Below, piece by piece: positions 34,180 to 40,404 of a DNA stretch of 64,000 nt. The position numbers and the translations under genes were made by a program. The notes below the pieces were generated by a model that did not search any database, had not been told where the DNA came from, and saw only the letters and a program-made list of their open reading frames with translations. The number at the start of each line of letters is the position of its first letter. Positions within the stretch are counted from its first letter, which is position 1. Origin of the DNA: an uncultured Chloroflexia bacterium. Its GTDB lineage: Bacteria; Chloroflexota; Limnocylindria; Limnocylindrales; CSP1-4. The stretch spans positions 32,001 through 96,000 of the forward strand of contig CAVTHS010000014.1 in the NCBI GenBank assembly GCA_963734535.1, written 5' to 3'.

Positions 34180-35517
34180 GTGATGGCCGCCTACTGGAAC
34201 CGCCTCTCGCTGGGTTCCAGGGCATTCCTCGTGATCGTCCCGGCCCTGCTCGTGGTCGGCGCGGTGCTGACCGTCGGGATCGCCGTCCTCCTCGGGCCCG
34301 TGCTCGACTTCCTGGGCGCGAACATGCCCCTGGTGCGGTTCGTGGCGGCCGCAACCGCGATCATCGTGATGACGATCCCGATCGCTTTCGTGATCATCTT
34401 CATGGAGCTCAAGGTCATCGCGGCCATCAATCTGCGCGTCGGACCGGACCGCGTCGGACCGTTCGGCAGCTTCATGTCGGTGATCCACGGCCTCAAGGTC
34501 CTCGCCAAGGAGGACTACACGCCGCGCGGCGTCGACGTCCCGATCTTCACCCTGGCGCCGATCGTCGTGTTCGCCTCGATCCCGCTGACGCTGCTGGTGA
34601 TCCCGTTCGCCCCCGGGATCTTCGGGCAGGACTTCAACATCGCCCTGCTCTACTTCTTCGCCATCGGCGGGATGAGCGTGGTGGGCCTGATGATGGCCGG
34701 CTGGGCCAGCTACAACAAGTACAGCCTGCTCGGCGCGCTGCGGGCCGCCGCCCAAGCCATCAGCTACGAGCTGCCGCTGACCCTCTCGGTGGTCGGGATC
34801 ATCATCCTGGCCGGGACCATGAGCCTGAACTCCATCGTCCAACAGCAGGCCGGGTCGCTCCTGGACTGGAACATCTGGAAGCAGCCCCTGGGCTTCATCA
34901 TCTTCTTCATCGCGGCCACGGCCGAGGCGAACCGGACCCCGCTGGACATGACCGAGGCGGACCAGGAGCTGGTGGCCGGCTTCGCCACCGAGTACTCCGG
35001 CATGCGGTTCGGGTTCTTCTTCTTCGCCGAGTACGTCAACGTGTTCGTCGTCTCGGCGCTCAGCGTCGTGCTCTTCTTCGGCGGCTGGAATGCCCCGTTC
35101 GACTGGCCGTTCCCGGTGACGCTGAGTCTCGATCCGGGCGGCCTGGGCCTCGGGCTTGTCTTCCTGATCGCGCTCGCCCCGGTGGTCGGCACGATCGTGC
35201 TGGGGCTGCCGTTCTGGCTTCTCTCGAGTCGCGTGAGCACGCTCCGGGCCCTCGTGATCGGGTTCATCCTGTTCAACATGCTGGTCGTCGGGGCGTTCCT
35301 CGGCTGGGCGTTCGTGAGCGCCGAGTGGGTTTCCGGGCTCGCCTGGATGATCGGCAAGACGTTCGTCTTCGTCTTCATCTTCGTCCAGATGCGTGGCACG
35401 CTGCCGCGCGTGCGGGTGGACCAGCTGATGAGCTTCGCCTGGAAATGGCTCCTGCCGGCGGCGCTCCTCAACATCTTCGCGACGGCCACCGCCGTCTCGA
35501 TCCTGGCGAACCGGTGA
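34180..35517 (+). CDS. nuoH: Complex I subunit H, enlarged (445 aa)
   Basis: RVGPDRVGPFG, KYSLLGALRAAAQAISYE, AEANRTPLD..EA..ELVAGF.TEYSG, RGTLPRVRVDQL..WK. Confidence 0.92.
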   Translation: MMAAYWNRLSLGSRAFLVIVPALLVVGAVLTVGIAVLLGPVLDFLGANMPLVRFVAAATAIIVMTIPIAFVIIFMELKVIAAINLRVGPDRVGPFGSFMSVIHGLKVLAKEDYTPRGVDVPIFTLAPIVVFASIPLTLLVIPFAPGIFGQDFNIALLYFFAIGGMSVVGLMMAGWASYNKYSLLGALRAAAQAISYELPLTLSVVGIIILAGTMSLNSIVQQQAGSLLDWNIWKQPLGFIIFFIAATAEANRTPLDMTEADQELVAGFATEYSGMRFGFFFFAEYVNVFVVSALSVVLFFGGWNAPFDWPFPVTLSLDPGGLGLGLVFLIALAPVVGTIVLGLPFWLLSSRVSTLRALVIGFILFNMLVVGAFLGWAFVSAEWVSGLAWMIGKTFVFVFIFVQMRGTLPRVRVDQLMSFAWKWLLPAALLNIFATATAVSILANR

Positions 35518-35527
35518 GGGCGACGGC

Positions 35528-36362
35528 ATGAGCTTCGTCCCCGGGATGGGCGTCCTCAAGGGCATGGCGCTCACGCTGCGGCGGTTCTTCGCGCCGAAGG
35601 TGACGATCCGGTACCCCGAGGTCACGCCCGACATCGCCGTCAAGTACCGCGGCAGGCTGCAGCTGCTGTACGACGAGCACGGTACGCTCAAGTGCGAGAC
35701 CTGCTTCCAGTGCGCCCAGGCCTGCCCGATCGAGTGCATCGACATGGGCGGCGTCGACACCAGGGGGCGCTACGCCGTCCACTGGGGCGCCTCCGAGACC
35801 TACGGCGAGCGGCGCGAGGAGGCGGCCCTCCGGCGCGCCGGCCGCGAGGTGCCGGACCCGACGTACGCCCGCTTCGAGGCCGTCGACACCGCCGCCGTCG
35901 ATCGCATCCTGGAGGATCACGACTACGACCCGCACCGGATGCTCTCGATCCTCGAGGCGATCCAGGCCGAGTTCGGCCGCCTCCCCGTCGCGGCGCTCAA
36001 GCAGGTCAGCTTCACCACCGGGTCGTGGTACGCGATGATCTACGGCACCGCGACCTACTACCGCCACTTCCGGTTCGAGAAGACGGTCGAGCAGGTGGCC
36101 GTCTGTCGCTGCACGGCCTGCCTGATGCAGGGCGGTGGGCGGCTGGCGGACGCGCTCGCTCGCCGGGCTCGGGACGGGGCTCGGGCGGATCACGCCGGAC
36201 GGCCGGATCCGGCTGGACTGGCTGCCCACCCACCCCGCCGGCGCGCCGGCGCCGCTCGTGACGCTCGACCGCGAGCCCCAGCCTGAGGTCACGCCTGCCA
36301 ACGCCGCCGCCTGGGCCCAGGCGCTCGTCGGGGAGCATCCCGCCACCCGGACGGTTCACTGA
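35528..36362 (+). CDS. Fusion of NuoI N-terminal half with degenerate NuoE (frameshift near 36160)
   Basis: VTIRYPE..YRG..CETCFQCAQACP (only one NuoI ferredoxin motif), then NuoE-like MLSILEAIQAEFG.LP..YGTATYY..F..VAVCRCTAC; tail ITPDG..LDWLPTHPAGAPAP in ORF 36135..36362. Confidence 0.85.
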
Positions 36363-36366
36363 GCCG

Positions 36367-37732
36367 ATGACGACGATCCTCCCGACACCGGCGGCCTGGC
36401 CGCGACCGCTGCTCGGCGATTCGCCGAGCAGCGACCCGCCCTCGGGCGACGCGCGGCTCGCCGATCCCGCCGACCTGGACGCCGCGGTCCGCGCAGGCGC
36501 GTTCGCCGGGCTGACCCGCGCGCTCCGCGATCTGGGCGCCACGCTGACGACCGCGACGATCGCCGAGTCGGGCCTTCGCGGCCGAGGCGGCGCAGGCTTC
36601 CCGGCGGCCCAGAAGTGGCGCGCCGTCGCCGCGACGCCCGGGGCTCTGCGGTACGCCGTCGCGAACGGCTACGAGGCAGATCCGGCGGGGGCCACGAACC
36701 GCCACCTGATGACGCAGCGCCCGTACGCGATCGTCGAGGGCCTGGCGATCGCCGCGCTCTCGGTCGGCGCTGAGGAGGCCATCCTCGCCGTCCGGGCGGA
36801 GTACGCGGACGCGGTCACGGCCCTGGAGCTCGCGGTCTCCGCGGCCGAGGAGGCCGGGTACATCGGCGAAGACGTCCTGGGATCCGGGCGCGCGCTCCGG
36901 ATGACGGTCCATCCCGTGCAGGGTGCCTACCTGCTGGGCGAGGAGACGGTCCTCCTCAAGGCCCTCGAGGGGCGCCGGGGCCAGCCGGAGCAGCGCCCGC
37001 CCTACCCGTCGGAGCGCGGCCTCTGGGGCCGGCCGACCCTCGTCCACAACGTGGCAACGCTCGCGGCGATCCCCTGGATCGTCGTCCACGGCTCCGATGC
37101 CTACCGCGCCATCGGCGACCCGGACGCCCCGGGGACGGTCCTCGTCCAGGTGACGGGTGCCGTGCCATCACCTGGCATCGTCGAGGTCCCGACCGCGACG
37201 CCGCTCACCGAGATCGTTGGCCTGGCGGGCGGAGTGGCGGGCGGCCGCACGCTCAAGGCCCTCCTCGTCGGCGGGTCCCTCGGGCGGGCTCCTGCCGGCG
37301 GACCTCGTGACGACCCCGTACACGTTCGGGGCGCTCCGCGCGGTCGGCGCCCATGTCGGATCGGGTTCGGTGGTGGTGGCCGACGACCGGACGTGCGTGG
37401 TGGACCTGGCACGTCTCCTGACCCGCTACTGCGCGGACGAGGCATGCGGCAAGACGATCCCGTGCCGGATCGGGCTGCGCCGCCTGTCGGAGATCGGGGA
37501 GCGGATCGCGTCCGGCCTGGCCCGCCCGACCGATCCGGGGCTTCTTGCAGACCTCGGGGCGGACATCGTGGGGAGCGCGCTGTGCGACCACGAGCGGCTC
37601 GCAACAGGGCCGCTGGCGACCGCGATGCGATACTTCGGGCCCGAGATCGACGCCCACCGCTCGGGCGTCTGCCCAGCCGGCGTCTGCGCCCCCGCCGGGG
37701 TCGTGGCCGCCGGGACCGCGCACGGAGGATAG
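36367..37732 (+). CDS. nuoF: NuoF-like flavoprotein subunit, degenerate (frameshift near 37275)
   Basis: SGLRGRGGAGFP..KW, GAYLLGEET, PPYP..GLWG.PT..NV.T, SLBB domain, then GGPSGG and EACGKTIPCRIG..SALC..CPAGVC in ORF 37157..37732. Confidence 0.85.
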
Positions 37733-37743
37733 GCACGACCGCG

Positions 37744-40404
37744 ATGGCCGACCTCATCTCCCGCCCAGCCGACCGCATCCCCGGCCCAGCGGACCTCGTC
37801 TCGACGACCCGACCCGAGCCGGTGGTCGACTCGCTGGCGGAGCGGCTCTTCCGCACGCAGTCGCCGCAGCGCCCGCAGTCCACGCCGGTCATCCGGCTCG
37901 AGGTCGACGGGCGCGCCGTCGAGGGCCGCGAGGGCCAGACGATCCTCGAGGTCTGCCGCGACAACGGGATCGAGGTCCCCACCCTGTGCTACGAGCCAAA
38001 GCTGCCGGGCTTCGGCGCCTGCCGCATGTGCGTGGTGGAGGTGGCGGGCGAGGAGCACCCGCCGATCTCGTGCTCGCGCCTGGCCGAGGCCGGGATGGTG
38101 GTCCAGACCCAGACAGAGGAGGTTCGCCGCCTGCGCCGGACCAACCTGGAGCTGATCTTCTCCGACCACAACGCGTACTGCCTGCCGCCCTGCCAGAACA
38201 AGTGCCCGAGCCACATCGACATCCCGGGGTTCCTCAAGGCGAACGCGGAGGGCGAGTTCCGCGAGTCGGCCCGGATCTTCAAGCGCACGATCCCGTTCCC
38301 CTCGATCCTGGGCCGGGTCTGCCCGGCGCCGTGCGAGGAGCACTGCCGGCGCGACGAGGTCGACGAGGCGATCGCGATCCGCGACAGCCACCGCTACGCG
38401 GGCGACCAGGTGATCCGCGCGATGCGCGAGCAGGACGTGGATCCGCCGCTCCCCTTCGAGCTGCAGCCGAAGTCCGGCAAGCGGGTGGCGGTGATCGGGT
38501 CCGGCCCGGCCGGCGCGTCCGCGGCCTACTACCTGCTGATCGCGGGCCACGACGTGACGATCTACGAGCGGGACGAGGCGCCCGGCGGCATGCTCCGTTA
38601 CGGCATCCCGGAGTACCGGCTCCCGAAGGAGAAGGTCCTCGATCCCGAGTACGAGAGCATCACGCGACTCGGCGGGCGCTTCGTCTGCAACCAGGCCCTT
38701 GGCCGCGACTTCAGCCTGGACGACCTCCAGAACCAGGGCTACGACGCCGTCATGGTGGCGATCGGCTGCTACGACACGAACAAGCTGGGGATCCCCGGCG
38801 AGGACGCCGACGGTGTCATCGACGGCCTGGAGTACCTCAAGATCGCCACGCTCGGCCTGACCTACCCGGGCCACGCCGGCACGCGGGTCGTGGTCATCGG
38901 CGGCGGCTTCACCTCGATGGACTGCTCGCGAACCTCGGTACGCCAGGGGGCGTCGGAGGTGACGCTCGTCTACCGCCGCGACATGAAGGACATGCCCGCC
39001 TCCGGCGAGGTCCACGAGGCCATCGAGGAAGGCGTCACGACGATCTTCCAGGCCGGCCCGACCCGCGTCATCGCGAACGAGGCGGGCAAGGTCACCGGTG
39101 TGGAGTTCATCCGGATGCAGCTGGGCGCCGCGGACGCCTCGGGCCGTCGTCGACCCGAGCCGGCCCCTGGCACCGAGTTCACGATCGAGTGCGACCGCGT
39201 CCTGCTCGCGATCGGGCAGGGCCCGGACCTGACCTGGATGGGTGGTGGCTCGGACGGCGTCGAGGCCACGAAGTACAAGCGCCTGCGGGCCGACGCGGTC
39301 ACCTTCCTGACCCCGCGGCCGGGCGTCTTCGGGACCGGCGACGTCCGCATGGGCGCCCAGACCGTCGTCCAGGCGATCGCCGACGGGCGCCGGGCCTCCT
39401 ACGCGGTGGACGCCTACCTGAAGGGAATGGACCTCGGCGAGATCCGGACCCGCCAGACGCTGGCGGAGCCACAGCCGGAGTTCCTTAGCATCGTCCCGTT
39501 CACGTCCGAGGTGAAAGCACCCCGCAACCGGCTGCGGACCATGCCTGCCGAGGAACGGCGCTCGAGCTACGTCGAGTACGAGATCCCGTACTCGCAGAGC
39601 GAGGCGGTGGCGGAGTCCACGCGCTGCCTGCAGTGCACCTGCGAGGCGATCGGCTTCTGCGACCTGCGCCGCCTGGGCATCGAGTACGGGACCACCCTCA
39701 AGACGCTGGAGCCGCAGAACAACGGCGGGGCCGGCTTCCGGAGCGTGACCGAGAACCGCTTCACCGGCTCCAACCACGACTACATCCGCGACGACAGCCA
39801 CGCCTTCATCCTCCGCGAGCCGTCGCGCTGCATCGACTGCGGCCGCTGCGCCAACGTCTGCGCCGAGGTCGTCGGGGCGGCCTGCTACGACTTCATGCGG
39901 ATCGGCTTCGACACCCTGGTGACCACGCCGCTCGACATGAGCCTCAACGACACGCCGTGCGTGTCGTGCGGGCGTTGCGCGGAGACGTGCCCCACCGGCG
40001 CGCTCATGCCGAAGCCGCGGATCCTCGAGAAGTACGACGTGGACGAGAGTCGCTGCATCCTGTGCGGCATCTGCGTCGACGCCTGCCCGTACGACGCGCT
40101 CCGCTGCGGCCCCGACTTCGAGCTGGCGCACGTGAGCCGCGAGGAGCCGATGATCGACCTCATCGCGATCGCGGCGGTCGATCGCGAGACGGAGATGACC
40201 TACGTTCGCCGCGAGCGCGACTGGCTGGAGCGGGCAGTCGCATCCGGCCGGGATGTCGGCGCCCGCCAGCTCCCGGTGCTCCCGGCCTCGCTCGCGGGCG
40301 GCGCGAACGGCAACGGCAGCGGTCGCGCGAGCGTCCCCGGCAACGGCCACAATGGGCACGGCCCGGCCGGCGGCGGCACCGCCGGGCACGCGCACAACCG
40401 GTAG
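37744..40404 (+). CDS. NuoG-N / GltD(NfnB)-like FAD-NAD(P)H oxidoreductase / 2x[4Fe-4S] / NuoI C-terminal half fusion
   Basis: [2Fe-2S] PTLC..GACRMC..SC; SDHNAYC; [19 protein letters not shown]; [20 protein letters not shown]; [11 protein letters not shown]; RCLQCTC..C; CIDCGRC..C; CVSCGRC..CP; [30 protein letters not shown]. Own ATG at 37744. Confidence 0.88.

Follow-up and report, generated by a model that had tools for sequence, protein, structure and literature searches.

Where do electrons enter a complex I whose NuoE- and NuoF-like components no longer carry the canonical cofactor ligands? The question is raised by a nuo operon at 31.1–46.3 kb of a 64,000-nucleotide stretch of DNA (the window; G000:C14:32001-96000) from the assembly of a soil bacterium whose source names identify the clade as Chloroflexota, Candidatus Limnocylindrales. 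In the list of open reading frames (ORFs) the gene order is A, B, C, D, H, [I-N::E], F, [G'::I-C], J, K, L, M, N. I-N::E joins the N-terminal half of NuoI to a NuoE-like domain (E), F is NuoF-like, and G'::I-C joins a composite protein (G') to the C-terminal half of NuoI; the features described below lie on the forward (+) strand. Sequence comparison identifies E, F and G' as an input module of the Nfn-Bfu type (NfnABC/StnABC-like), spliced into the NuoI of the only complex I found. A first-pass annotation, made from the sequence alone, had taken E and F for NuoE and NuoF that have lost cofactor ligands, suggesting that the NADH entry site is switched off and that the GltD-like domain of G' is the true electron entry. 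Our overall interpretation, which we hold to be probable by a little, is that an NADPH-type module derived from Nfn-Bfu sits in the split NuoI, that NADPH would enter at the GltD domain, and that E and F would form a non-canonical side branch.

Ligand replacements in E and F

The E domain (35801..36362, with stop codon TGA at 36360-36362) is BfuC-like and matches PF01257 at residues 125-213 of the window ORF with 50.4 bits (cut-off 24.8). It is not a separate subunit: in the window, as in 17/17 aligned orthologues of the genus, it continues in frame from the NuoI N-half. The first Cys pair of the N1a/C1 [2Fe-2S] site is present in CRCTAC (36104..36121), together with an additional middle Cys. 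The four-Cys pattern C-x4-C ... C-x3-C is not found: where aligned canonical homologues have C-x3-C, the window has LPTHPAG (36222..36242), so that the second pair reads T-H-P-A-G, as the first-pass annotation had proposed. Motifs were counted in the 120 nearest database clusters for each of E and F. CxCxxC occurs in all 120 E clusters, whereas canonical homologues have C-x4-C without the middle Cys. The second-pair region holds a His, beside the old position of the pair's first Cys, in 119/120 clusters and a Cys in only 14/120. Lineages differ here (we number families f and genera g): g10 reads A-C-H-G, and f4 has Asp instead of His. In four sister genera (g3, g4, g7 and g9) and in one family (f3), E is reduced to its N-terminal helical domain, and the cluster domain is wholly absent and hence dispensable.

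The F gene (36367..37732; ATG at 36367, TAG at 37730-37732) resembles the BfuB core and passes both NuoF Pfam domains, PF01512 with 134.1 bits and PF10589 with 64.5 bits, along with SLBB. Its glycine-rich loop for flavin mononucleotide (FMN) and NADH is retained as GRGGAGFP (36580..36603) with the adenine-stacking Phe, and so are the Lys, GEET and, in the alignment with NfnB, loop 3. Loop 1 reads GLRGRGG[AG]G[FY]P in 97/120 F clusters and the Lys of KW is present in 115/120; the PP[Y]P aromatic is Tyr in 74, His in 20, Phe in 3 and Trp in 1, with 22 unmatched. The acidic loop is altered. In the alignment with NfnB, NGYEADPAGATNR (36664..36702) stands in the position of NADEGDPGAFMDR, and N-A-D-E-[GS]-[DE]-P-G reads N-G-Y-E-A-D-P-A, which puts Tyr in place of the Asp beside the FMN, by alignment count Asp-195 of Tsi NfnB. 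Cluster counts were 69 for NGYEADPA, 27 for NGYGADPA and 9 for NGYEADPG, and none of the 120 clusters has the canonical loop, 6 of them being unmatched by the pattern. Throughout the class the position of this Asp is taken by Tyr, in f4 by Met. The Bfu signature Ala and Met that fall within NGYEADPAGATNR are Gly and Thr; in Tsi NfnB numbering, A201, M203 and F281, which are reported to mark bifurcating BfuB (PMC12018979), align to Gly, Thr and Tyr of F. GAYICGEET reads GAYLLGEET (36922..36948), with GEET kept and the Cys of CGEET changed to Leu. That substitution had been reported correctly for the window, yet Leu is the minority form, 100/120 clusters having GAYMLGEET.

The N3/B1 motif YCADEACGKTIPC (37427..37465) keeps three of the four Cys as C-G-K-T-I-P-C ... 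C, and its central Cys is Thr, encoded by ACG, so that more than a single base separates it from the TGY of Cys. The canonical second Cys occurs in 0/120 F clusters; Thr (C-G-K-T-x-P-C) occupies the central position in 111, Ser in 7 and Ala in 1, with 1 unmatched by the pattern. The fourth Cys lies in ALCDHER (37577..37597), where it is followed by Asp-His-Glu and not by the Gly-x-Gly of canonical proteins; His at +2 is found in 115/120 and Glu at +3 in 117/120 clusters. Where the central Cys has become Thr, Ser or Ala, the segment at the fourth Cys has changed with it, to C-[D/A]-H-E-R (f1, f2) or C-[K/R]-L-E (f4). About 13 residues follow the C-terminal CPAGVC of F. The motifs quoted in the first-pass annotation, among them CRCTAC, LPTHPAG and GAYLLGEET, are all present where it had placed them. 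It had also pointed to a spare Cys just upstream of N3, in YCADEAC. We rejected this candidate for a conserved fourth ligand: the position is Cys in just 57 of 119 clusters, Gly in 51, Ser in 7 and Ala in 4.

The replacements are not confined to this genome. An F homologue was found in 40 of 41 genomes searched in the genus and its sister family f2. Seventeen genus genomes have a full-length match (67-94% identity, open frames of 468-531 aa), and broken matches occur in four assemblies of few contigs (G016, G018, G006, G020). In f2, whose genomes are 1.0-1.4 Mb, each of 16/16 has exactly one F match, at 52-60% identity. We aligned 17 E and 17 F orthologues of the genus; loci L022 and L023 were excluded for broken F frames, and L006 and L008 were missed by the E filter, L006 being recovered later. 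All 17 E and all 17 F sequences carry the same ligand replacements. Median pairwise ratios of nonsynonymous to synonymous substitution (dN/dS), from 105-120 pairs per gene with one E pair excluded for high dS, are lowest for the first ~345 residues of G' (0.12), followed by the NuoI N-half (0.18), E (0.25) and F (0.28). With ratios of 0.25 and 0.28, E and F are under purifying selection, less tight than that on their neighbours, and the substitutions are fixed in the genus, a result in support of the first-pass interpretation. The ligand changes are an old, selected remodelling, neither decay nor sequencing error. The F tree leaves the f1 and f2 genera as an unresolved polytomy and places f3, which has a four-Cys N3, on a long branch; it gives at least two losses of the N3 Cys (Ala in f4; Thr or Ser in f1/f2, where g10 is canonical) and does not fix their exact number.

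The input module and the proposed route of electron entry

Solved structures related to E, F and G' are led by NADPH:ferredoxin/NAD transhydrogenases of the Bfu type: NfnABC of Caldicellulosiruptor (9BOV/9BP5; PMC11829005) and of Thermococcus sibiricus (9N5U; PMC12018979), and StnABC of Sporomusa (8OH5; PMC10482914). Best matches are 9bov_C (7.3e-13), 9n5u_C (2.4e-11) and 8oh5_A (3.1e-11) for E; 9n5u_B NfnB (6.7e-100), 9bov_B (1.4e-97) and 8oh5_B (1.8e-96) for F; and 9bov_A NfnA (1.4e-162), 9n5u_A (2.7e-141) and 8oh5_C (2e-140) for G'. NuoF of complex I scores lower against F, 8e9g_F being the best at 4.8e-83 and Thermus 2fug_1 reaching 7.5e-66. E and F are closer to Bfu-type subunits (9bov, 9n5u, 8oh5) than to the ordinary NuoE and NuoF for which they had been taken. 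A query made from an intact F orthologue (460 aa) aligns only to residues 126-537 of the 602 of NfnB, and because the alignment is confined to that part, F lacks the B2-B5 cluster/Zn domains.

The G' fusion (37744..40404) comprises, by Pfam, a NuoG-type [2Fe-2S] domain, a GltD-like domain for flavin adenine dinucleotide (FAD) and NADPH with two [4Fe-4S] sites (Fer4_20 and Pyr_redox_2), a NuoG N4-type [4Fe-4S] region and the NuoI C-half. Residues 49-781 align to 3-699 of the 1178 residues of 9bov_A NfnA. The GltD-like domain shares its FAD, GGG..D and YRR motifs and every cluster Cys with Caldicellulosiruptor NfnA, which is biochemically NADPH-oxidising (PMC11829005). The alignment stops at 699: the Fdh-like C-terminal domain, a non-functional remnant in NfnA/StnC (PMC11829005; PMC10482914), is absent, and the NuoI half stands in its place. 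At 38383-38406 (DSHRYAGD) the Lys ligand (K170) of the FAD-proximal [4Fe-4S] cluster A7/C7 of NfnA/StnC aligns to His, as it does in an f2 orthologue; mutation of this ligand cut or abolished activity in the published enzymes.

NuoI is divided between the two ends of the module. Its N-half (35528..35800) forms the first 91 residues of the I-N::E gene and carries the first CxxCxxCxxxCP motif (CETCFQCAQACP); in an intact orthologue, residues 9-81 align to NuoI 7-79 of 8e9g_I. The C-half (40012..40239) has the second CxxCxxCxxxCP at 40054-40089. At the end of G', more than 30 NuoI/NDUFS8/TYKY sequences give the longest single matches, each through its second half (for example 8qby_I, 93-143 of 163, 5e-15), and the top whole-sequence scores, reached through summed repeats, belong to polyferredoxins. 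The two motifs thus lie on separate polypeptides about 4.3 kb apart and not in a single NuoI, and by these alignments the input module lies inside a split NuoI, in the order I N-half::E, F, NuoG-N/GltD/4Fe-4S::I C-half.

In NfnABC the bifurcation site is a flavobicluster made of FMN, B1 (the N3 equivalent) and C1 (the NuoE cluster), and electrons pass along FAD-A7-A6-A3-A2-A1-B1 (PMC11829005; PMC12018979); Asp-195 is proposed to stabilise the FMN semiquinone (PMC12018979). All three elements of this site are changed here, two Cys of C1, the central Cys of B1 and the Asp beside the FMN being gone, and in the aligned sequences the replacements are themselves conserved. With neither the extra cluster domains nor the signature residues of Bfu in F, the module bears the marks of a non-bifurcating form, as judged by comparison with NfnB. 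To speak of lost cofactor ligands is right for the replaced Cys but too simple. Since E has gained a third Cys and a His, and loss of the central Cys of F co-varies with Cys-[Asp/Ala]-His-Glu, E and F look like remodelled metal sites and not empty ones.

We propose that a hydride from NADPH would pass to the FAD of the GltD-like domain as the main electron entry, and that electrons would then move through the two [4Fe-4S] clusters of that domain, a His-ligated N5-like cluster and the clusters of the reassembled NuoI to N2 and quinone, driving proton pumping. E and F would be a side branch under purifying selection and a scaffold for the N-terminal part of G', perhaps also an auxiliary or regulatory site for NAD(H) in which the metal centres are altered, and would not be the canonical NADH dehydrogenase site. 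NADPH entry through the GltD domain, where the first-pass annotation had placed electron entry, is the best-supported route that we infer, on the match of its FAD and NADPH motifs to those of an NADPH-oxidising NfnA. StnABC deprived of the [2Fe-2S] cluster of StnA, in which NADPH oxidation persisted (PMC10482914), offers an experimental precedent. A more specific form of the proposal is tentative, and we rate it as rather less probable than the general one: a proton-pumping NADPH:quinone oxidoreductase, perhaps reversible (making NADPH from quinol and proton-motive force), in which FMN, B1 and C1 would have become redox-silent or re-tuned (3Cys-His, 3Cys-Glu/His, possibly holding Zn) and would serve as a scaffold or NAD(H)-sensing cap and not for electron entry. 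In Csac NfnB, 3Cys-His and 3Cys-Glu sites bind Zn (PMC11829005).

Several points weigh against our interpretation. One rival is a complex I with two donors. F would then bind FMN and oxidise NADH through a modified N3, either a [4Fe-4S] cluster held by three Cys and Glu/His or a [3Fe-4S] cluster; the GltD domain would add an NADPH entry, and the E cluster would lie off the main path and hence be dispensable. The CxxXxxC motif is typical for [3Fe-4S] clusters, a three-Cys site is able to hold a working [3Fe-4S] or [4Fe-4S] cluster, and in canonical complex I N1a is off the main path, so NADH oxidation could survive its loss. The replacement residues at N3, His and Glu, are conserved as ligands would be, and g10 and f3 combine the canonical CxxCxxC and C-G-x-G with the same overall architecture. 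F keeps the Gly-rich loop and most of the NADH contacts listed for Csac NfnB (loop 1 aromatic, Lys, GEET, PP[Y]P, loop 3; PMC11829005). Its PF01512 score in the genome comparison, 135.9 bits, comes close to the 141.5 and 162.6 of two canonical paralogues. Purifying selection acts on F, and no other NuoF homologue was found in the 16 f2 genomes searched (~1.1 Mb); if F is inactive, NADH must therefore reach the chain of these genomes by another route. The functional steps we propose, and the reassembly of the two NuoI halves, are read from sequence.

Against a second donor stand the class-wide replacement of the FMN-adjacent Asp by Tyr (Met in f4) and the change of NNVET to HNVAT, in a segment that differs among lineages. 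Adenine-stacking residues are also replaced, by PPHP in g4 and g7 and PPQP in g9, and in g5 loop 1 carries a Leu instead. The E-x-[D/E] triad lies near the nicotinamide (PMC11677225; PMC8357420), and its first Glu is lost in many genera, as the NGYGADP, NAYQSDP and NLMAADP lineages show. We consider the two-donor scheme less probable than our interpretation. Between a working NADH dehydrogenase site and a non-canonical or silent one, the sequences make the latter somewhat more likely. That the NADH entry has been switched off, as the first-pass annotation had it, is plausible but unproven in view of the NADH contacts kept by F and of the f2 genomes, where F has no other NuoF beside it.

Reading frames of E and F

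In the window both genes are interrupted. The reading frame of E changes near 36160 and resumes in another frame up to its stop codon, and that of F changes near 37272-37276 before its terminal TAG; the 1345-aa ORF in the ORF list is a read-through artefact of G+C-rich DNA. In a blastn comparison with the 94% identical relative L005 (2456/2613 identities), each break is a single extra base in the window, at 36159..36162 in E and 37272..37276 in F, and the only other gap in the coding region is an in-frame 18-base difference. This last difference, near 36630, is an AATPGG-type repeat unit in the N-terminal region of F; the N-terminal ~60 residues of F differ in length across the genus. The first-pass annotation had stated that the substitutions are not indel artefacts. 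This holds for the motifs, with their ACG Thr codon and their recurrence in 17 + 17 orthologues, but it left unmentioned that the E and F genes are each frame-broken by one extra base.

We compared the window over 35400-38000 with contigs assembled from the public runs X1, X2, X3 and X7, of which X7 gave no usable cover at either place. X1 contains 0.80 of the words of this interval, in contigs of 1133 and 1079 bases, and these lack the extra base at 36159 (depth 11.7/11.7) and at 37272 (depth 13.6/13.6). In X2 and X3 the extra base is absent at 36159-36162 and at 37275-37276 from all covering contigs, with 38.4/38.4 for X3 at 37276. Deleting the extra base restores ...ADALVAGLGTGLGRITPDG... 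in E and ...LVGGPSGGLLP... in F, both of which agree with the orthologues. Because the covering contigs of three runs lack both extra bases and relatives have intact frames, both are probably assembly errors, and E and F are intact in nature.

The reading that E and F are true pseudogenes in this strain, with genuine frameshifts and a decaying N-module, is accordingly very unlikely. In its favour, both frameshifts sit in E and F (1.9 kb together), the remaining nuo ORFs look intact, and the stretch 36001-38000 has a G+C of 0.749, the maximum of the operon (0.674 and 0.702 on its flanks). X1, moreover, is not identical to the window, from which it differs at 8 further bases over 2.2 kb (6 + 2 by contig). 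It may be the source sample or a near-identical strain; since it is possibly another strain, a true strain-specific frameshift retains a small probability, which counts against our interpretation. What speaks against pseudogenes, beyond the read-derived contigs and the intact frames of relatives up to 94% identical, is that E and F have no stops or other damage in the window apart from the two extra bases, that 37270-37277 resembles a merge of two strain variants, that of X1 and that of L005, and that a further gene of the assembly also appears frame-broken.

Related systems and genomic setting

The module shares with NfnABC/StnABC a three-part build, consisting of a NuoE-like part, a NuoF-like part and a large subunit that begins with a [2Fe-2S] domain, bears NuoG-type [4Fe-4S] clusters and has a GltD-like insertion for FAD and NADPH. 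In the GltD part it also shares the cluster Cys and the motifs for FAD and NADPH. It differs in being encoded in a nuo operon with both ends fused to NuoI halves, in lacking the Fdh-like domain, the N- and C-terminal cluster/Zn domains of F and the bifurcation signature residues, and in the changed C1 and B1 ligands, Asp-195 and A7 Lys ligand. With the canonical N-module of complex I (NuoE/F/G; 2FUG, 8E9G) it has in common the Pfam families, the position in the nuo operon, the length of the NuoF core, the Tyr of GAY..GEET and a likely role at the tip of the peripheral arm. Unlike that module, it has 2/4 N1a Cys and 1/4 N3 Cys replaced and the NADE loop altered, G' has a GltD insertion and no molybdopterin-like domain, NuoI is split, and similarity to complex I is below that to Bfu.

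In the complex I of Campylobacter and Helicobacter, NuoE and NuoF are replaced by unrelated proteins, and the canonical NADH entry has likewise been abandoned for another donor. Limnocylindria, in contrast, keep remodelled homologues of E and F, and the new donor site would be a GltD-like flavoprotein domain. Campylobacter jejuni has no functional N-module and depends on flavodoxin (PMC12361115); in the available text of that paper 'Chloroflex' and 'NADPH' do not occur. The predicted Nuo-Bfu complexes of Geobacter, Deferribacteres, Planctomycetes and Nitrospirae (Schut et al. 2022, PMC9304861) also have a Bfu-related ABC module that replaces NuoEFG in the middle of a nuo cluster. Theirs, as described there, has a full bifurcating BfuB and no GltD domain, whereas Limnocylindria combine a non-bifurcating B subunit with an Nfn-type A subunit and have a NuoI that is split and fused. 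That the module still bifurcates or confurcates, coupling NADPH, NAD(H), quinone or ferredoxin, is most improbable in spite of its descent from Nfn-Bfu and the Bfu modules predicted earlier in nuo clusters (PMC9304861), for F lacks the B2-B5 domains, reported to be present in all true bifurcating Bfu members and absent from non-bifurcating relatives (PMC9304861), and the A201, M203, F281 signature (PMC12018979), and the C1 ligands or the entire C1 domain are gone, where StnABC without the [2Fe-2S] cluster of StnA lost both bifurcating activities and kept its NADPH:viologen activity, carried by StnC, at the wild-type level (PMC10482914). An mbx-like operon with a GltD-like protein in place of NuoI has also been described (PMC4758237). 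In the literature searched, including that on NADH dehydrogenase of Limnocylindria, we found no account of this architecture or of the ligand changes, within an incomplete coverage that excluded supplements. Known beforehand were the Nuo-Bfu predictions and the Nfn/Stn structures.

The source assembly (G000) has 3.2 Mb in 14 contigs, with completeness of 89.9%, contamination of 7.1% and ~70% G+C. Around the input module the ORF list shows a contiguous series of membrane- and quinone-module genes (A, B, C, D, H, J, K, L, M, N). NuoH and NuoD were confirmed by Pfam, nuoH (34180..35517; PF00146) lying directly 5' of the split-NuoI module, and A, B, C, J, K, L, M and N were assigned by eye from the ORFs. 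Contig C2 was considered as the site of a second complex I and rejected: by Pfam search and inspection of the ORFs, its NuoH and NuoD matches belong to a group-4 [NiFe] hydrogenase. Because these are the remaining matches, the window operon is the only complex I found in this 90%-complete genome. The hydrogenase cluster, membrane-bound, lies at 246-251 kb of C2 (L044); by eye, its large subunit ends in DPCISCTER and hyp-like genes adjoin it.

In two NuoF paralogues elsewhere in this genome, all canonical motifs are intact. The first is a HydB-like gene in a set with NuoE-like and NuoG-like genes at 27-30 kb of C2 (L030), whose motifs are fully canonical; the NuoE-like part of this set seemingly changes frame where the second Cys pair is expected, another possible assembly indel in the genome. 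The other is a NuoF::GltD fusion at 258.5-262 kb of C6 (L031), a single ORF that joins a thioredoxin-like domain, a canonical NuoF core and a GltD-like domain, and looks like a second, soluble NAD(P)H module. PntB, a subunit of the proton-translocating transhydrogenase, is present in 5/5 genomes tested, three of them of 1.1-1.4 Mb, and lies here at G000:C11:85457-86851; this fits an NADPH-fed chain and is no proof of one. NDH-2 (PF22366) was matched in 0/5 genomes, a weak test given that the same model matched only 3/14 control genomes.

The I-N::E protein was found in 131 of 151 genomes drawn from the class, a tally that includes five unpublished genomes (G102, G122, G126, G131, G157) counted without reading their sequence. 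By family, it occurs in 43/44 genomes of f1, 6/6 of f2, 49/50 of f4 (~40% identity) and 32/49 of f3 (~30% identity), and f1, f2 and f4 share the same architecture. At the f3 loci L041 and L043, an I-N::E with the helical domain only, F and G'::I-C directly follow nuoD, and the downstream ORFs are unlike nuoJ-N. A search of representative sequences with I-N::E returned only 53 clusters at 1e-30, many of them fragments, and no new architectures.

Limnocylindria (formerly Ellin6529) occur in soil, permafrost, peat and river metagenomes, according to run labels. Databases label these genes plainly as NuoE/NuoF or as 'NAD(P)H-dependent oxidoreductase subunit E', so that an ordinary NADH dehydrogenase would enter metabolic models. 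The sequence points instead to a complex I that would be fed by NADPH through a GltD-like flavoprotein, contrary to annotation. The clade also offers a natural mutant series in which all three elements proposed in 2025 as the Bfu bifurcation site are changed, spanning lineages with a four-Cys N3, lineages without the E cluster domain and lineages with Thr or Ala variants. For the modular evolution of complex I, it shows a core subunit, NuoI, divided in two and joined to an input module.

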